Source: an uncultured Eubacteriales bacterium (GTDB lineage Bacteria > Bacillota > Clostridia > Christensenellales > Aristaeellaceae). From it: DNA of 64,000 nucleotides. Within the stretch, counting starts at the first letter, position 1. The number at the start of each line of letters is the position of its first letter. The notes below the pieces were generated by a model. The model worked only from the letters and a program-made list of their open reading frames with translations, searched no databases and was not told the origin of the DNA. The position numbers and the translations under genes are program-made. Positions 2,496 to 61,526 of this stretch are shown piece after piece. Location of the stretch: the NCBI GenBank assembly GCA_900320085.1, contig ONRC01000005.1, forward strand, positions 35,735-99,734, read 5' to 3'.

Positions 2496-3743
2496 TTGTA
2501 TTTGATTTTACCACGGCCGGTGGAAACGGCTTTGAACCGTCTGGAAACGGCGGGCTATCCGGCCTTTGCGGTAGGCGGGTGCGTGCGCGACCACGTACTG
2601 GGCTTTACCCCCCACGATTACGACATCTGCACCGCCGCCACCCCGGAGGAAATGCAGCGGGTTTTTCAAGGGGAACGCACCATTGAAACGGGCTTAAAGC
2701 ACGGCACCCTGACGGTGCTGCTTGGCGGGATGCCGCTGGAAATCACCACCTTCCGGGTGGACGGCGCGTATTCCGACGGAAGGCACCCTGATTCCGTGCG
2801 CTTCACCGCGCGGGTGGAGGACGATCTGTCCCGCCGCGACTTCACCATCAACGCCATGGCGTACTCGCCTGTGGCCGGGTTGGTTGACCCCTTTGGCGGT
2901 CAGGAAGATTGCAAAGCTGGGATCATTCGCTGTGTGGGCGATCCCGCTGCCCGATTCGGGGAGGACGCGCTGCGCATCCTGCGGGCGCTGCGGTTTTCCG
3001 CCCGGCTGGGCTTCCCCATCGAGGACGCGACCGCCCAGGCTGTCCGGGAGGGCAGAAGCCAGCTAGGCCACGTCAGCCAGGAACGCATTGCGGTGGAACT
3101 GACGGGCGTGCTGCAGGGCGGCCACGCCGCCGGCGTGCTCAAGCAATTTCCCGAGGTGATCGAAACCGTCCTGCCGGAGTTAAGTCCCCTGATGCGCGGC
3201 GATGATTGGCTGCTAACCCTGAAAACCATTTCTTCTGCGCCGAAGGAGGCCGAGCTCCGATGGGCCGCGTTTCTTCTGCAATGCGGCGCAGATGCGGAGA
3301 GCAGCGCGAAAACGGCCCGCGAAATTTTGAAAAGCCTGAAAATGTCCGTCAAAATGATGGACACCGTATCCGAATTGGTAAGCTATCAGCGCGCTGACCT
3401 GCGCCTTGAAACCATGCAGGAAATGCTGATGCTTGTCGGTCCGGAACGGCTGGGGCAGCTGATCCTGCTGCGGCAGGCTGTGCGAACCGCCGAAGAAAAA
3501 GAAAGCCCGGACGCCGTCGCCCGGGACACGGAAGCACTGAGAGAAAAGCTGTCGTCATTGCTCAGCGAAAACGCCTGCTACACGCTTTCTCAATTGGCTG
3601 TGAACGGAAAGGACATGGCCGCTCTCGGCCTGCGCGGCCCCGCCATCGGGGAAACGCTCCACGCCCTGCTGCTGCAAGTGGTGCGCGGGCAGGTTGAAAA
3701 TGAACGGGATGCCTTGTTGAACACGGTGAAAAAGACACTTTAA
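2496..3743 (+). CDS. cca: CCA-adding tRNA nucleotidyltransferase
   Basis: AVGGCVRDHVLGFTPHDYDICT, RDFTINAMAY and ALRILRALRFSARLGF motifs of polyA polymerase/CCA enzymes. The track ORF (1986..3743) is 5'-extended. A TTG at 2496 is preceded by GGAAGGAG at 8 nt spacing. Confidence 0.85.
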   Translation: MYLILPRPVETALNRLETAGYPAFAVGGCVRDHVLGFTPHDYDICTAATPEEMQRVFQGERTIETGLKHGTLTVLLGGMPLEITTFRVDGAYSDGRHPDSVRFTARVEDDLSRRDFTINAMAYSPVAGLVDPFGGQEDCKAGIIRCVGDPAARFGEDALRILRALRFSARLGFPIEDATAQAVREGRSQLGHVSQERIAVELTGVLQGGHAAGVLKQFPEVIETVLPELSPLMRGDDWLLTLKTISSAPKEAELRWAAFLLQCGADAESSAKTAREILKSLKMSVKMMDTVSELVSYQRADLRLETMQEMLMLVGPERLGQLILLRQAVRTAEEKESPDAVARDTEALREKLSSLLSENACYTLSQLAVNGKDMAALGLRGPAIGETLHALLLQVVRGQVENERDALLNTVKKTL

Positions 3744-3745
3744 GT

Positions 3746-4425
3746 CACGACGGAGCGAGGGCCTATGCGGCCCTCGTGCACCTGCACCAGGAGATTTCTC
3801 ACGGGGCTGCCGCCCGGCCTACGCTGAGAATGATCCACTGGATCATTCTCCGGGCGCTTCAGCCCTCCTGGACCTCAATAGCGGAAACTACATGAATTGT
3901 AAAATCTGCTTGGTTCCCGCTGATACAGGGAAGAACGCGGAAGTCTGGCTTAGTGCCGTTGTGCTTCTGACCCGGCGGATGAATCGCCGATGACCGCCTG
4001 TGGCGGGAATTTCATCGGCGATGAAATCAGGCGAAACGAGCAATGTCCGCATGAAGCGGACTTGCGACGGCCTGCGGGGAACGCCGCCAGCCCGGATGCT
4101 TTGCATCCGGGGAAAGCCAGGGAAGAATCCGCAGGGGAAAGTTTACTTTCCCCCTCGGATTTTCCCGGGCTTTCTTGGGTCAGAAGTCCTCATCCTTTTC
4201 GTAACCCCAGCGCGACAGGCGGAGCTTGGCTGCTTTTCCCAACTACGTTATTTCGCCAAATGCGGGTCCAGGGACGAAGCACGGACAGCCGCCTGTGGCG
4301 GATGTTCTGTCCGTGCTGAGATCAGCCGAAACGAGCAATCTCGCCATGAAGGCGAGTTGCGACGATTGAGGCTGCGGATACTCAGGACCCTGGTTGGGGT
4401 CTGGGGCGAACAGCTGCGTGTTTTA
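3746..4425 (+). repeat. Family-A modular intergenic element, copy 1 (longest; carries modules M1, M2 twice, M3)
   Basis: Collinear sequence identity with 20941-21530 (+) and 31781-32055 (-). Starts 3 nt after the cca stop codon. Dense nested hairpins and no coding-like ORF. Confidence 0.85.
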
Positions 4426-4442
4426 AAGTGTCCAATCAATCA

Positions 4443-9732: not shown

Positions 9733-10145
9733 AGTTCTAAGTTCCAAGTTCTAAGTTTCAAGCTTATCGTGTTCGCTTCTCTTGGTCACACCATAACAGC
9801 TTATACTGTTTGTCTTCTAAATAATTGAGTAAAGAAACCCCTAAGCCTTCCCCTTGAGGGGAAGGTGCGCCGCGCGGAACCGACTGCATTGAAAGCATCG
9901 GGCATTTTCGCGCGGCTCGGATGAGGTGATTTGCAGGGATGCAGTCAAGAAACTAAAACGAATGCCAACATCACCTCAGAACGCTTCGCTACGCCTTCGG
10001 CCGCAGTCAGGCGCGAATGAACTTGATTTCTTTATCCAGCTTGGTTCCGCGCCTGACAGCTTCCCCTCAAGGGGAAGCCTTCTGGTTGGTATTCTTATTC
10101 AATGGTTTAGAAGATAAACAGTATTAGAACTTATAACTTAGAACT
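9733..10145. repeat. Three-layer nested palindromic element (heptad arms, 40-nt inverted repeat, family-B multi-hairpin core)
   Basis: Outer arms are AGTTCTA AGTTCCA AGTTCTA AGTTTCA (9733-9760) versus TAGAACT TATAACT TAGAACT (10125-10145). Inner inverted repeat is 9801-9838 versus 10088-10127. The core 9846-10079 is homologous in inverted orientation to 14993-15198. Confidence 0.85.
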
Positions 10146-13556: not shown

Positions 13557-13566
13557 ACTTTTTTGT

Positions 13567-13669
13567 AGGGGAAACCGCTCTTTGGACAACCTCATCCGGC
13601 CCTGTGGGCCACCTTCCCCTCATAGGGGAAGGCTAAAAACGGTTTTCCCCACACCCCTTTCCGAGAAAG
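13567..13669 (-). repeat. Family-C palindromic element, copy C1 (inverted orientation)
   Basis: The reverse complement reads TTTCTCGGAAAGGGGTGTGGGGAAAACCG...GGATGAGGTTGTCCAAAGAGCGGTTTCCCC, with an internal CCTTCCCCT-ATG-AGGGGAAGG hairpin. Homologous to 18634-18760, 29263-29323 and 40648-40814. Confidence 0.8.
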
Positions 13670-14898: not shown

Positions 14899-14992
14899 GG
14901 GTGCTTTCCTCTCTAAATTCTTATTGGTGCGATGGATGATATAATGGAAATCTTCAATTCACAAACACAAGTAAGAAAAGCGTCTTCAAAAG

Positions 14993-15285
14993 CCTTCCCC
15001 TCGCAGGGGAAGGTGTCAGGCGCGGAAACAAGATGGAAAGCGTGATCAAGATAATCCGCGCCTGACGGATGAGGCGCTCCCCCAGTTACATGCTCACATA
15101 TTGCCGGGTGAGTTCACCTCATCCGAGCCGCGCGAACTATCTTGACTTCTTTTTCCTACTTTGTTCCGCGCGGCCCACCTTCCCCTGCGAGGGGAAGGCT
15201 TTTGGAAAACCTTTTACTGCTTTAAAGTTCCCTTTCTCAAACTCCTCTTTACAACCAAATGGGCCTTCCCCAAAGCGGGGAAGGC
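14993..15285. repeat. Family-B multi-hairpin element (five consecutive hairpins) plus one extra CCTTCCCC hairpin
   Basis: Hairpins: CCTTCCCCT-CGC-AGGGGAAGG, TCAGGCGCGGA...TCCGCGCCTGA, CGGATGAGG...CCTCATCCG, GCCGCGCGAA...TTCCGCGCGGC, CCTTCCCCT-GCG-AGGGGAAGG, then CCTTCCCC-AAAGC-GGGGAAGG at 15264-15285. Confidence 0.85.
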
Positions 15286-18615: not shown

Positions 18616-18633
18616 CAAATACCCTTTTATACC

Positions 18634-18760
18634 TTTCTCGGAAGGGGGTCTGGGGGAAACCATCTTTGGGGCCGAAGCGCCCGGGAAACCTGCCCTTGGG
18701 CTGGTTTTCAGCGGAGGCCGGGCCGGAAGGCCCCGGACAGCAAAGAGCGGTTTCCCCCAG
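18634..18760 (+). repeat. Family-C palindromic element, copy C2
   Basis: TTTCTCGGAAGGGGGTCTGGGGGAAACC...CAAAGAGCGGTTTCCCCCAG, ending 10 nt downstream of the gyrB stop codon. Confidence 0.8.
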
Positions 18761-18769
18761 TTCCGTCCC

Positions 18770-20779
<2,010 letters not shown>

Positions 20780-20940
20780 TCAAACAAATAATATTTCACC
20801 TGCTTATTATACCACAAAACCGGGAAAAATGGAAGGGTTCCTTCTTATATAATGGCATTTTCCCATGGAGAAAAAAGAGGGATTTTGACCGGTTATACCA
20901 TGATCATGCTATGAACTTTTAAAATACTGACAGGCGTGTT

Positions 20941-21530
20941 GCAAAGGGAGACGACGAGGCGAGGGCCTGTGCGGCCCTCGTGCACCTGCACCAGGAGATT
21001 TCTCACGGGGCTGCCGCCCGGCCTACGCTGACAATGATCCACTGGATCATTGTCCGGGCGCTTCGGCCCTCCTGGACCTCAATAGCGGAAACTGTTTGAA
21101 TGATAAAGTCAGCTTGGTTCCCGCAGAAGCGGGGAGGAACGCGGAAGTCTGGCTTGGCGCCGTGGCGCTTCTGGCCCGGCGGCAAAGCCGCCAGCCCGGA
21201 TGCTTTGCATCCGGGGAAAGCCAGGGAATCAACCGCAGGGGTAAGTTCACTTTCCCCTGCGGTTGATTCCCTGGCTTTCTTGGGCCAGAAGCCCTCAAAC
21301 TATCCGTTACCCCAGCGCACCAGGCGGAGCTTGTTTGCTTACCTCAAATCCGTTATTTCGCCAGTTGCGGGTCCAGGGCAGTCACCGCCCTGGCGCAGGA
21401 CGAACCGCCGATGACCGCCTGTGGCGGAATTCTCATCGGCGGTGAGATCAGCCGAAACAAGCAATGTCCGTAGGACTTGCGCCGATTGAGGCTGCGGAAC
21501 TGGGGGGCGCGCAGCCCCCAGCGTTCCCTT
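20941..21530 (+). repeat. Family-A modular intergenic element, copy 2 (carries M1, M3, one M2)
   Basis: Near-identical to copy 1 over 20941-21180 and collinear thereafter. Lies between the gyrB upstream region and the mscL 3' end, antisense to both neighbours. Confidence 0.85.
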
Positions 21531-21647
21531 TGGTCAGTTTTGAACATCGTCCATGAAAGTACGACTGTTAAAAGGAAAACAGCAGAACAGAAAAAAGCGG
21601 CGGAATATTTCATCCGTCGCTTTATGAAAATCGGATTCAAACGCGGT

Positions 21648-27162: not shown

Positions 27163-28442
<1,280 letters not shown>

Positions 28443-29172: not shown

Positions 29173-29262
29173 GTTATCCCTCTTTCATCGAGATGGTAAA
29201 AAAGAAATCTGTTTGGAAGCAACAATATCGGATCGTTATAATAATGCTGTACCCTTTATGGA

Positions 29263-29323
29263 TTTCTCGGAAGGGGGCCAGGGGGAAACCGCTCTTTGGC
29301 CTACAAAGAGCGGTTTCCCCCAG
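29263..29323 (+). repeat. Family-C palindromic element, minimal copy C3
   Basis: TTTCTCGGAAGGGGGCCA then GGGGGAAACCGCTCTTTG-GCCTA-CAAAGAGCGGTTTCCCCC, a perfect 18-bp stem. Confidence 0.85.
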
Positions 29324-29336
29324 CACTTTCCCGTTC

Positions 29337-30486: not shown

Positions 30487-31614
30487 TTACTGCCGGTACT
30501 TCCGGGCGCACTCGTTCACGATGGCCTGCATAGCGTCCATCTTTTCAAGCATGTCCTTGGCCAGAGCGATCTGGCAGCGGGTGCGCACCAGGTTGTGCTT
30601 TTCCTTTTTGACATTGAAGTACTTGTCGCCGTTGATATAGTCGTCCAGGAAGCGGGTGGCCAGCTCGCAGGCCAGCACAAAGCAGGACAGACCCAGGGTG
30701 GCGATCTCGTTTTCGGTCAGGGTCTTGGCGGTGTATTTCAGGAACCCTTCGGCGAAGGCCCAGAAAATGTTCAGGTTGATGCCAGCCTTGGGGTAATCCG
30801 CCGAATCCTCCTCCACAAAGTTGGCGGCGAAGCGGATGGCGTCGCCGAAGTCATGGCCCACCAGGCCCGGCATGACCGTGTCCAGGTCAACCACCACCAG
30901 GGCTTCACGGGTGTCCACGTCGAAGAGGACGTTGTTGATCTTGGTGTCGTTATGGGTCACGCGCAGGGGCAGTTCCCCCGCGTTGAACATATCGGTCAGC
31001 CTGCACGCCTGATCCTGCACGGACAGGAGCCAATCCAACTCTTCCCTGACTTCCGCCACGCGGCCGCAGGGATCGGCCTGCACATCCTGGATCAGCGTTT
31101 CATAGCGCTTGCGGGTGTTGTGGAAATCGGGGATGGTGTAATACAGGCGGCTGGCGTCAAAATCGCTCAGCACCATCTGGAATTCGCCGAAGGCCTCGCC
31201 CGCGTTGCGCACCACGCGCAGATCGTCGCAGGTGTCGAACGTGACGGAGGGCACGTAATTGCAGATGCGCCAGAAGCTGCCGTCGTCGTCCATCAGGTAG
31301 GTTTTCCGGCCGTTCTCCTCGCCCGTGTGATGGTAATGCAGGCTCACCTTGTCCGGCTGTTTTTCCCGGATGTACTCCGTCACCAGGTCGATGTTTTCCA
31401 TCAATTGAACGGGATTGCGGAACGCGTAGGTATTTACCCGCTGCACCAGATAGCTTTTGATCACCGCCATGCCCGTGCCGTCGTCCCGGACGTAATTGGC
31501 CTTGTAGGTACGGTTCACGTTGCCCTGGCTGACTTCCTCGTAGGAAAAGAACGGGCCTTTCAGATGAAACCCTTCCCCTACCTGCTGCAATTTTCGCGCC
31601 ATTTGCTGATCCAT
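30487..31614 (-). CDS. Aminoglycoside-phosphotransferase-fold sugar kinase, N-acetylhexosamine 1-kinase (NahK)-like
   Basis: 375 aa. THNDTKINNVLFD (catalytic loop), VVDLDTVMPG (DxD), and overall length and pattern like NahK/LnpB-type kinases. Specificity not established. Confidence 0.65.
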   Translation of the reverse strand: MDQQMARKLQQVGEGFHLKGPFFSYEEVSQGNVNRTYKANYVRDDGTGMAVIKSYLVQRVNTYAFRNPVQLMENIDLVTEYIREKQPDKVSLHYHHTGEENGRKTYLMDDDGSFWRICNYVPSVTFDTCDDLRVVRNAGEAFGEFQMVLSDFDASRLYYTIPDFHNTRKRYETLIQDVQADPCGRVAEVREELDWLLSVQDQACRLTDMFNAGELPLRVTHNDTKINNVLFDVDTREALVVVDLDTVMPGLVGHDFGDAIRFAANFVEEDSADYPKAGINLNIFWAFAEGFLKYTAKTLTENEIATLGLSCFVLACELATRFLDDYINGDKYFNVKKEKHNLVRTRCQIALAKDMLEKMDAMQAIVNECARKYRQ

Positions 31615-31707: not shown

Positions 31708-31780
31708 TCAGGAAAAAACGGGTCTTTCAGCGGGTATGCTGTTCCCAAGGATAAATCGTCCATCCAGCAAGAAGGAAACA

Positions 31781-32055
31781 CTGGGGTTTCACCCCAGACC
31801 CCACCAGGGTCCTGAGGACCCTGGACCCACAACTGGCGAATTATCCTGGTTGGGTAAAGCAGGCAAGCTCCGCCTGGTGCGCTGGGCCAGAAGCACAACG
31901 GCATCAAGTCAAACTTCCGCATTTCTCCATGCCTTTACGGGAACCAAGCTGATTCACCAGACCAAGCTATTTCCGCTATTGGAGTCCAGAGGATGAAATC
32001 CTTTGGTGCAGGGGTACGGGGCCGCATAGGCCCCTGCCTCGTCGTAACCCTTTGC
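31781..32055 (-). repeat. Family-A element, copy 3 (minimal 275-nt core without M1/M2/M3 modules)
   Basis: The reverse complement aligns end to end with the conserved blocks of copies 1 and 2. Begins 72 nt after the ABC ATPase stop and ends upstream of the NahK-like promoter. Confidence 0.85.
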
Positions 32056-32127
32056 AGCATCAATAATGTAGAAAAGAATACCAACAAACGCAAAAATGTG
32101 GAGCCGCATGGGCCCCACACTTTTGCT

Positions 32128-34179
<2,052 letters not shown>

Positions 34180-40577: not shown

Positions 40578-40647
40578 GATTACTTCCTCCATTTTTGCAA
40601 ACAGTCATAAAAAACGAGTCATTTGTTTTTACTTTCCCCCTTTCGCC

Positions 40648-40814
40648 TTTCTCGGAAGGGGGTCTGGGGGAACCGCTCTTAGCCTTCCCCCCGCAGGGGG
40701 GCCGCAGCGCCCGGAAAATGATCCAGTGGATCATTTTCAGCGTAGGCCGGGCGGCAGCCCCGGATGGTGGCCCGCAGGGCCGGATGAGGTTATCCAAAGA
40801 GCGGTTTCCCCCAG
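40648..40814 (+). repeat. Family-C element, copy C4, expanded by nested insertion of module M1 (inverted) and a GGATGAGG module
   Basis: TTTCTCGGAAGGGGGTCTGGGGGAACCGCTCTTAG ... 40707-40762 equals the reverse complement of the M1 block found in family A ... CCAAAGAGCGGTTTCCCCCAG. Confidence 0.85.
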
Positions 40815-40818
40815 AATA

Positions 40819-41988
40819 TTATTTGGGATTCCTGCGTAAATACTCCATGCACATGCGTCCGTTGTGATAGGGGCACTTCCAGGGCTCCACGATGGGTTCG
40901 TCGCTGCCGGGGGTGCCGTCCTCATGCAAATACCAGAACCATTCGCTGCCGGGGCGCTTGTCGATAAGGTGATCCCGGATGTAGGTCCACTGCGTGACAA
41001 CGGCGTTTTTATAGCGTTCTTCGCCGGTCTTTTCATACGCGTTCAGGAAGCCCAGCAGCGCTTCCGCCTGTACCCACCAGATGCGCTTCTGGTTCACGAC
41101 GCCCCGTTCGCACTCGTTGGCAAAGCCGTGGTCGGTGAAGGCGGCATGATAGGTGTGATCGGCCATCTGCAAAAGAAGCGGACGGATGCGGGCGGTCAGC
41201 GCCGGGTCGTTCAGCGCTTCCAGGGTCTTTTCCGCCAGCCAGCTGGTTTCAATGTCGTGACCGAAGGAGTGCAGGTCGATCAGGGTGTTGTATTCGTGAT
41301 CGAAGAACACCTCCTGCCGCCGCTTTTCCTTGTTGTAAATCTTGTTTTCAAAAATATCCAGAATCTCATACAGCCGGGCTTTGACGCTTTCATCCGGCCA
41401 GGCCTGATATAAACCCGTGTAGCCCTCCATCACATGCAGCAGGGTGTTCATGGTGCGGGTGGCCATCACGCCGTTTTCACTGAGCTTTTCATTGCTCTCC
41501 GGCTGCCAGTCTGCGGTGAAGGCTTCCAGATAGCCGCCTGCGTCCCGGCACTTGGTTTCGATGATTTCAAACAGGGCTTTGGCCCGTTCCAGCGCGTCCC
41601 TCTCCCCTACTGCCCGGTAATAAGCCGACAGGGCGTAGATAGCGAATGCCTGGTTATAGGTGTGCTTGGTGCCGTCAGCCACTGTGCCGTCCGCGTGCAG
41701 GGCCCAGTACACCCCGCCGTTTTTTTCATCCATCATGTGTTTCAGCATGGCGTAGGCGTGGCGGGCGTCGTCCAGCAGTTCTTCCTCTTTCAGCAGCATG
41801 TAAGCCTCTGAGAAAAACCAGAGGATGCGGCTGTTCAGGATGCAGCCCTTGTCCGCCTCCGGGCGGCGGGTCAGGTCAAAGTCCACCTGGCCGATAAAGC
41901 CGCCGTTTTGATCGTCCCGCAGCCCGCGCCAAAACGGAATGATGCGCCGGGTCAGTTCATTCCGGATTTCCGAATGCATATCTGGCAT
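40819..41988 (-). CDS. N-acylglucosamine 2-epimerase-fold enzyme, cellobiose 2-epimerase-like
   Basis: 389 aa. RIIPFWRGLRDDQNGGF, CILNSRILWFFSEAY and HVMEGYTGLY are AGE/CE family patterns. Partner of the GH130 MGP in the known mannobiose pathway. Confidence 0.75.
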   Translation of the reverse strand: MPDMHSEIRNELTRRIIPFWRGLRDDQNGGFIGQVDFDLTRRPEADKGCILNSRILWFFSEAYMLLKEEELLDDARHAYAMLKHMMDEKNGGVYWALHADGTVADGTKHTYNQAFAIYALSAYYRAVGERDALERAKALFEIIETKCRDAGGYLEAFTADWQPESNEKLSENGVMATRTMNTLLHVMEGYTGLYQAWPDESVKARLYEILDIFENKIYNKEKRRQEVFFDHEYNTLIDLHSFGHDIETSWLAEKTLEALNDPALTARIRPLLLQMADHTYHAAFTDHGFANECERGVVNQKRIWWVQAEALLGFLNAYEKTGEERYKNAVVTQWTYIRDHLIDKRPGSEWFWYLHEDGTPGSDEPIVEPWKCPYHNGRMCMEYLRRNPK

Positions 41989-45715: not shown

Positions 45716-45819
45716 GAGTGTGCAGAGTTCAGAGTACAGAGTTCAGATGATATACCCGATCAATTTCGATTTGCGCAGAGCACTCACTATCTTATCTGTA
45801 CTCTGAACTCTGCACTCTA
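45716..45819. repeat. Heptad-armed inverted repeat (unit CAGAGTT/CAGAGTA) in the rpoB-rpoC spacer
   Basis: Left arm CAGAGTT CAGAGTA CAGAGTT CAGATGA (45723-45750). Right arm TACTCTG AACTCTG CACTCTA (45799-45819). About 23 bp potential stem. Confidence 0.85.
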
Positions 45820-61429: not shown

Positions 61430-61526
61430 AGGCAGTAGGCAGTAGGCAATAGGCAGTAGATAAGGAAGTGTGCGCAGTGTGTACTTTTTCTTAATGCCTA
61501 CTGCCTACTGCCTAATGCCTATTGCC
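61430..61526. repeat. Heptad-armed inverted repeat (unit AGGCAGT/AGGCAAT) immediately upstream of the GH88 RBS
   Basis: Left arm AGGCAGT AGGCAGT AGGCAAT AGGCAGT (61430-61457). Right arm TAATGCC TACTGCC TACTGCC TAATGCC TATTGCC (61492-61526). Confidence 0.85.

Follow-up and report, generated by a model that had tools for sequence, protein, structure and literature searches.

We have identified a family of intergenic elements, several copies of which lie in a 64,000-nucleotide stretch of DNA from an uncultured Eubacteriales bacterium (the window), that is best explained as a new group of MITE-type or foldback-type mobile repeats, non-coding and non-autonomous, located at the terminators of bacterial and phage genes. 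We put the probability of this reading at about two in three. We call the family F1, its copies in the source species c0 to c3, and the comparison loci by L-numbers. An earlier note on the window, made from its letters alone, had proposed either a large structured RNA or a nested MITE. The second of these proved essentially right, given the inverted-repeat ends, the palindrome, the nested repeats, the differences in presence between relatives and the decay by insertion and deletion that are described below. The first, the reading of F1 as a large RNA gene, is not supported.

The three copies first noticed, at 3746-4425 (plus strand), 20941-21530 (plus strand) and 31781-32055 (minus strand), are real. 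Their mutual similarity (E-values of 1e-13 to 1e-84 in blastn and nhmmer) is far beyond chance, and block-by-block alignment agrees with the description of ordered, collinear blocks in c1, c2 and c3. The sites were placed correctly but the ends were not, as c2 extends over ~20900-21590 and c3 over ~32086-31735, both with inverted-repeat ends. Nor are there only three copies, a fourth (c0) lying just left of the window. The copies in the source species are as follows (positions are those of the window unless a locus is named):

3744 to 4434, plus strand: c1, of a short-ended subtype, spanning the interval between the stop codon of cca and the conserved flank ATCAATCATCAC, with three nested inserts.
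20900 to 21590, plus strand: c2, with both inverted-repeat ends (left 20900-20950, right ~21531-21590).
31735 to 32086, minus strand: c3, a derivative without domain b, with its deletion junction at 31877-31894.
32046 to 32086 (left) and 31735 to 31757 (right, degenerate), minus strand: the inverted repeats of c3.
L029:5826 to 6298: c0, the fourth copy, from the same species, ~1.2 kb left of the window start.

The gene context given in the earlier note proved accurate. Copy c1 follows the stop codon of cca (the gene for the CCA-adding enzyme) by 3 nt and has a convergent YlmH-like gene downstream. Copy c2, which is antisense to both flanking genes, is bounded by the promoter region of gyrB and the terminator of mscL, and c3 is found 72 nt past the stop codon of an oligopeptide ABC-ATPase gene, flanked by the terminator of that gene (32126-32090) and by the promoter of an APH-like gene (31707-31679). 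The start of c0 is the stop codon of a gene for an F5/8 type C domain protein. The neighbours of F1 (cca/ylmH, gyrB/mscL, opp ATPase/APH, cysK/histidine kinase, a Sel1-repeat protein and phage head genes) are unrelated to one another, which rules out a cis-regulatory element of one gene class. Of the seven copies whose upstream gene is known, six have the same orientation as that gene, a bias that is not significant (binomial, one-sided p = 0.06). As had been noticed before, F1 contains no conserved ORF, and no transposase is found among the neighbouring genes; the indels between copies are not multiples of three. We also note that a group consisting of a gene for a barnase-like ribonuclease with a PG-binding domain, a barstar gene and an N6/N4 DNA methylase gene (L029:7072-9351, the right part of which is the window start to 1846) adjoins cca and is conserved in L030, L032 and L033. 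A look-up of the protein at the right end of the window, aimed at extending the locus, gave no match on record.

Beyond c0 to c3 we found five further copies, three in rumen assemblies, one at the same locus in another strain and one on a phage contig. Eight independent copies at unrelated loci are thereby available. Exact-pattern scans of whole collections returned true copies only on a pair of contigs from one genome, another pair from metagenomes and a single viral contig, the pattern matches at L003-L011, L013-L021, L023 and L041-L043 having been dropped as chance. The additional copies are:

L001 and L002: copies in the rumen Clostridiales MAG RUG14706 (CADCJO01).
L012: a metagenome contig with the c2 locus of another strain, 99.3% identical.
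L022: a metagenome contig with a copy cut by the contig end.
L040: a viral contig with a copy at the phage locus L040/L044.

Four copies occur in the ~72 kb from the source species, whereas none is found in ~160 kb of non-redundant loci that belong to its close relatives (gyrB 89-95%, cca 81-92% and APH 89-94% identical in amino acid sequence), and the family is therefore narrow and patchy. Its subfamilies cross species. Copy L002 is 88-89% identical to c1 and c2, and the nearest relative of c1 is the phage copy L040 (85% identity), with which it has the ends CTTTAAGTCAC ... TTTAAAGTGTCC in common; within one genome, c0 and c3 are only 75-81% identical to c1 and c2. We found no match to F1 in PLSDB or INPHARED (blastn, distant mode) that would indicate a plasmid or known-phage source, and no autonomous element with F1 ends in the ~430 kb of loci examined.

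Dispersed copies that are present in one genome and absent from its relatives are a hallmark of MITEs, and F1 displays both. The cleanest case for mobility is the comparison of phage L044 with phages L045 and L046. The phage locus L040/L044 contains a major head protein gene (phrog_1357, E = 2e-61), and L045 and L046 are collinear with L044, with head proteins that are 72-75% identical. In L045 and L046 the spacer between a small ORF and the next gene is 52 nt long and holds a 36-nt intrinsic terminator. The matching interval of L044 is 475 nt long and is filled, from stop codon to ribosome-binding site, by a 459-nt F1 copy. Likewise, at the c3 site the spacer measures 198 nt in the relatives L036 and L037 (APH 90% identical, order of ABC-ATPase and APH genes kept) as against 513 nt in the window. 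Terminators adjoin further copies: c3 and L002 each come after one, and the right end of c2 is at the mscL terminator.

The c1 site is less simple. In L032 sequences like the c1 ends stand on both sides of a different small hairpin built of GGTAGGAGG units, and we have withdrawn L032 as a clean empty site because the end-like sequences remain around this (GGTAGGAGG)n hairpin. Their retention means that some of the differences in presence or absence may be deletions. In addition, the last codons of cca in this clade (L032, L033) resemble the left end of F1. We observed that the last codons together with the stop (GGTGAAAAAGACACTTTAA; window 3715-3743; L032:11220-11248; L033:6540-6585) are similar to the left end of the phage copy (ATGTGGTAAAAGGGTGCTTTAAGTCAC), and that in L033 the reading frame continues through the sequence equivalent to the cca end. 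The C-terminus of the cca protein may therefore stem from an insertion that took place long ago.

Every complete copy, a unit of ~450-520 bp, is a single large imperfect palindrome with inverted-repeat ends, an overall shape that the earlier note had overlooked. When the left half of L002 was aligned with the reverse complement of its right half, the arms matched over 244 columns with 59% identity and a score of 71, as compared with 21.9 +/- 4.1 in shuffles; the arm-to-arm scores were 49 for c2 (shuffles 21.8 +/- 3.1) and 43 for c0 (shuffles 16.4 +/- 2.9). The terminal inverted repeats of the MITE class are thus present, with arm alignments far above shuffles. Moreover, when the 3' ends are reverse-complemented, they fall under one consensus with the 5' ends across different copies. 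The ends are A/T-rich and of two types, a long type (TRTTGTSCC..TAACAGTC.TGTT.T.AAGG.T.AA, with an A/T-rich stretch after TRTTGTSCC) and a short type (GGRYRCTTTAARTCAC), the end motifs being TAACAGTCATGTTGTGAAGGGT and GGRYRCTTTAARTCAC. The phage copy L040 has GGRYRCTTTAARTCACAAMGG at either end, and since it shares the short ends we revised our view of c1 from a truncated copy without ends to a bearer of the second end type.

Within the ends, each arm contains a pair of G+C-rich hairpins, H1 and H2 on the left and H3a and H3b on the right. H1 mirrors H3b, and H2 with the GAC..CAATAGCGGAAA that comes after it has its mirror image in TTCGCC.GTTG.GGGT and the adjoining H3a. The profile of the right arm matches the reverse strand of the left arm. 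The centre of the palindrome is domain b, a 137-nt cluster of three hairpins within a closing stem, GCTTCTGGCCC/GGGCCAGAAGC. As a consequence of the overall palindrome, the blocks listed in the earlier note partly mirror one another. That note had named terminal inverted repeats, target-site duplications and a lack of supported covariation as the signs of a plain non-autonomous transposon. The inverted repeats are there; covariation, as discussed below, is present in the local hairpins rather than absent; and no target-site duplication could be demonstrated, the exact termini being uncertain and the junctions in L036 and L045 diverged. The trinucleotide TCA flanks L002, and TTTAA occurs near both ends of c1 and L040, but both sequences belong to the inverted repeat.

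The large copies are enlarged by nested repeats, which we call modules a and c. These and domain b are located as follows:

3800 to 3864, plus strand: module a in c1, a 65-nt palindromic repeat in the loop of hairpin H2.
21004 to 21068, plus strand: module a in c2, at the same position as in c1.
40694 to 40762, minus strand: a solo module a, inside another nest of palindromic repeats (40637-40823).
3979 to 4082, plus strand: first module c in c1, a 104-nt structured repeat in the loop of hairpin Hb1, after GCGG.
4273 to 4381, plus strand: second module c in c1, in hairpin H3a after CAGG, its stems differing by compensatory changes.
21400 to 21499, plus strand: module c in c2, after GGCGCAGG, between hairpins H3a and H3b.
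L029:6172 to 6270: module c in c0, at the same junction as in c2.
21167 to 21292, plus strand: domain b of c2, the palindrome centre with its closing stem.

All four known copies of module c (~100 nt), two in c1 and one each in c2 and c0, lie within F1. They occupy three distinct insertion points, each after CAGG or GCGG and with no duplication seen (in c0 the left junction is deleted), and in this respect module c is reminiscent of target-specific hairpin elements, for example those of the IS200/IS605 type. Its stems show compensatory changes between copies, GAGATCAGCCGAAAC..GCAAT is constant, and it has no match among the Rfam ribozymes. The long copies had been said to differ from the 275-nt copy mainly by insertions at hairpin tips. 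This is correct for modules a and c, which are the only true insertions; the largest difference, that of the 137-nt domain b, arose instead by deletion from the short copy. Domain b is complete in five of the seven other copies, including those of RUG14706 and the phage, and starts in a sixth, L022, before the contig breaks off; c3 retains the 5' strand GCTTCTGGCCC of the closing stem without its partner strand. Thus, the 275-nt copy is not a minimal core, as we had considered, but a derivative that has lost the palindrome centre. Deletion of the centre is typical of long DNA palindromes.

The architecture of F1 differs in every copy. Domain b is missing from c3, the inner right arm from c0, where module c plus a deletion takes its place, and part of the left end from L001. 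Losses also distinguish strains. In L029, c1 has lost 31 nt and with them one strand of the domain b stem; in the window, it has lost 13 nt and with them half of H3b. In L039, which is otherwise 100% identical to the window over 9.5 kb, c2 has a 30-nt deletion (21069-21098) that takes away one strand of H2 together with CAATAGCGGAAA, the most invariant block of the family. Strain comparison of c2 with L012 was uninformative as to selection, as divergence is mosaic (element 99.3%, mscL 99.5%, gyrB 95.7% identical). L039 further differs from the window by indels of ~107 nt and ~30 nt in the fused double ABC-ATPase gene and the APH-like gene (window 34019-34124 and 30666-30696), which are either repeat-mediated variants or assembly differences.

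Is F1 nonetheless an RNA? Ten local hairpins are well supported, their aligned cells comprising 426 Watson-Crick pairs, 4 G.T, 8 A.C and 17 others. Double (compensatory) changes were found in 12 hairpin pairs, a count that rests on seven sequences, as compared with 5.5 +/- 1.6 in shuffles (none of 500 reached 12) and 1-4 in slid controls, and it follows that the pairing itself is selected. One example had been pointed out before, the hairpin after CCTGCACC having changed on both strands (GGAGAT/ATCTCC, GGAGGT/ACCTCC, AAGGAT/ATCCTC). Of the properties generally expected of an RNA gene, F1 thus possesses covariation in support of its helices. The others were not found. All supported pairs belong to local palindromic hairpins, wobble pairs show no excess (4 G.T against 8 A.C mispairs), and neither strand is favored: the RNAalifold consensus energy is -130.2 kcal/mol for the sense strand versus -136.7 kcal/mol for the antisense strand, and single-sequence folding energies are equal on both strands. 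The very low folding energy of a single strand (z = -12.6 versus shuffles) is due to the palindromic nature of the element. Nor is there a single architecture with its own promoter and terminator. A terminator-like hairpin is present at the 3' end of c2 and c3, and no conserved promoter was found among the copies examined; promoter-like hexamers in the left end, which we considered and rejected, occur in L002 only and face outward on the antisense strand.

Searches for known families agree with the impression in the earlier note that F1 is unlike several familiar RNAs. At gathering scores, Rfam 15 yielded nothing in the window other than a TPP riboswitch elsewhere, and permissive scans (E up to 10) of c1, c3 and L002 gave chance hairpin matches far below threshold, for example to microRNA models. 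We therefore discarded ROOL, GOLLD, OLE, HEARO, raiA, group I and II introns, hammerhead and other ribozymes, none of whose covariance models matched. The riboswitch itself (RF00059; 8407-8503, plus strand; 61.1 bits, E = 1.6e-9) lies upstream of a gene for a YuaJ-type thiamine transporter, which is annotated in the matching locus at L029:16085-16783.

An alternative that we consider unlikely but take seriously is that F1, or its left core of ~160 nt (H1, H2, CAAUAGCGGAAA, CUUGGUUCCC and GCGGAAG), is a functional structured RNA, acting as a 3'-UTR element or as a small RNA made from or after the upstream gene. A function such as termination, protection from exonucleases or the sequestering of a protein would then conserve the interior, and the palindromic ends would be a mere vehicle for spreading. 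MITEs usually have ends that are better conserved than the interior. In F1 the pattern is reversed: identity among copies is 80-88% in the interior, 49-62% in the inner ends and 41-49% in the outer ends, so that the ends are the least conserved part, which suggests that the constraint is on the interior. This reversal keeps a functional interior alive as an explanation. The left core is intact in eight of eight independent copies and has invariant unpaired blocks (CAATAGCGGA, CTTGGTTCCC and GCTTCTG). The compensatory changes, the prevailing sense orientation, the low folding energy, the terminator-like 3' hairpins of c2 and c3, and the fact that the phage copy occupies the exact position of the terminator in its relatives all point the same way. 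Against this, strands that fold equally, the want of a conserved promoter and of a G.U excess, and supported pairs that are all local perfect palindromes do not fit a dedicated RNA. Furthermore, what has been lost differs from copy to copy, near-identical strains differ by deletions that remove helices and an invariant block, and sister species do without F1. Finally, the nested modules show compensatory change of the same kind, so that this seems to be a general property of palindromic repeats in this genome.

A more specific version, which we regard as a somewhat longer shot, holds that the left core and the central hairpin cluster form an undescribed functional RNA module that phages have spread, with a mobile palindrome as its carrier. 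At the 3' end of the upstream transcript such a module would bring about termination, give protection or bind a protein of the host. Selection on such a module would explain why the interior of F1 is so much more conserved than its ends.

Less probable again is that F1 does not transpose at all and is a palindromic cassette of terminator regions, spread by illegitimate or homology-assisted recombination or by phage transfer, its inverted ends being only the outer part of the palindrome and not sites for a protein. The lack of a demonstrable target-site duplication and the variability of the ends, with their two types, would be in keeping with such a history, as would the replacement or abutment of a terminator in the phage, at c1 and in L002, the likeness of the cca 3' end in L032 and L033 to the F1 left end, and the loss of the palindrome centre in c3. 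However, both arms retain the motifs TAACAG, TGTT and AAGG beyond what their mutual pairing would require, and the mismatches between the arms are mostly transversions and not compatible with wobble pairing. Also, the occurrence of F1 in either orientation at no fewer than six unrelated loci, with subfamilies that cross species, is hard to account for without an active copying mechanism. Finally, a new self-cleaving ribozyme or the RNA component of a retroelement might explain multi-copy spread and occurrence in a phage, and the circumstantial signs are there (structure, invariant unpaired nucleotides, no Rfam match), but we judge it very improbable, as no copy has a reverse transcriptase or other partner gene nearby, no ribozyme family matches even at permissive thresholds, and the element is a palindrome with inverted ends and no strand asymmetry.

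We return, then, to F1 as a mobile repeat. In the model that we favor, F1 would be moved in trans by a transposase or recombinase that is encoded elsewhere and recognizes the ends. Insertion would favor the A/T-rich tract at intrinsic terminators, and once inserted the element would probably act as a bulky block of hairpins at the 3' end of the upstream transcript, as a terminator or a stabilizer. Copies would spread between a few rumen Clostridia, probably with the help of phages that ferry them between hosts, and then decay, as the deletions described above show. The compensatory changes that keep the hairpins paired are likely to reflect a need for structure, either in spreading or in being tolerated at the ends of genes, rather than a dedicated RNA gene.

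The window contains other repeats of palindromic form. Two foldback elements, X (9793-10134) and Y (14969-15222), have inverted-repeat ends of their own and are related in their G+C-rich interior (AAGCCTTCCCCTYGMGGGGAAGG...). Arm-to-arm alignment of X gave a score of 51 versus 16.9 +/- 3.3 in shuffles. We rejected a single transposase for F1 and X, as their ends are not significantly alike. A further palindromic family (CTCGGAAGGGGGTCTGGGGGAAACCGCTCTTTG ... CAAAGAGCGGTTTCCCCCAG) is found at gene ends at 13563-13659, 18623-18783, 29252-29332 and 40637-40823, the last copy enclosing the solo module a. Hairpins with arms of tandem units (GGTAGGAGG, AGGCAGT, AGAGTWC) also occur at gene ends (L032:11255-11385; window 61430-61520; and 28331-28367 with 45782-45818), and the one in L032, at the c1 position, has ATCAAT on either side.

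Nested, G+C-rich palindromic repeats abound in this lineage of rumen Clostridia, and with their very low folding energy, compensatory changes and conserved blocks they look like structured RNAs. Scans for large non-coding RNAs will keep flagging them, and to that extent F1 is mainly a matter of annotation. In addition, F1 clearly exemplifies a non-coding repeat common to phage and bacterial chromosomes that occupies the exact place of an intrinsic terminator in relatives. Should its conserved interior prove to be a functional RNA, F1 would exemplify the spreading of a transcript-end module by means of a mobile shell.

How does F1 compare with known systems? It falls in the size range of ROOL, GOLLD, OLE, HEARO and raiA and like them occurs in Clostridia or phages, but those RNAs have a strand-specific, non-palindromic architecture that is kept in all members, and F1 does not. 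REP and BIME units are short (~20-40 nt), G+C-rich, clustered palindromes linked to the RAYT transposase. At 450-520 bp F1 falls outside that class, and no RAYT or IS200-like gene was found at the loci examined; the 65-nt module a may be closer to the REP/BIME type. The repeats bcr1-bcr18 of the Bacillus cereus group, described by Kristoffersen and co-workers in 2011, reportedly include some that are MITE-like and some with conserved secondary structure and compensatory changes. Like F1, these are intergenic repeats of Firmicutes that raise the question of RNA or mobile DNA; they are shorter and have no sequence relation to F1, and we know of no description of a whole-element palindrome with nested repeats among them.

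Among the pneumococcal repeats, BOX is an array of repeat units, BOX, RUP and SPRITE have predicted stable RNA structures, and SPRITE resembles a Rho-independent terminator and is biased to the 3' ends of genes that converge (PMC3184786). F1 shares with them modularity and a predicted stable structure. It differs in host group, has no sequence similarity to them and is one large palindrome rather than a tandem array, and its modules a and c, unlike the building blocks of BOX, are independent nested repeats. The Correia elements (CREE) of Neisseria have terminal inverted repeats, are present or absent between strains, occur in prophages, can carry promoters and affect neighboring transcripts (PMC3184786). 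F1 resembles them in its terminal inverted repeats and in its presence or absence between close relatives, but CREE are 104-157 bp long with well-conserved ends, whereas F1 is three to four times longer and has ends that are less conserved than the interior.

With 450-520 bp, F1 stands at the upper end of the size range of bacterial MITEs, of which MaeMITE reaches 435 bp (PMC3184786). The ERIC or IRU elements of Enterobacteriaceae, which are of the MITE class, are imperfect palindromes located between genes at gene 3' ends, are co-transcribed with their neighbors and are patchy between related species (PMC3184786). ERIC measures ~127 bp, as compared with 450-520 bp and a multi-hairpin interior in F1, has no sequence similarity to it and is flanked at both termini by a TA motif, whereas no flanking duplication is demonstrable for F1. 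Some ERIC copies are enlarged by internal insertions. F1 is like ERIC in being an intergenic imperfect palindrome at the 3' ends of genes with a patchy abundance.
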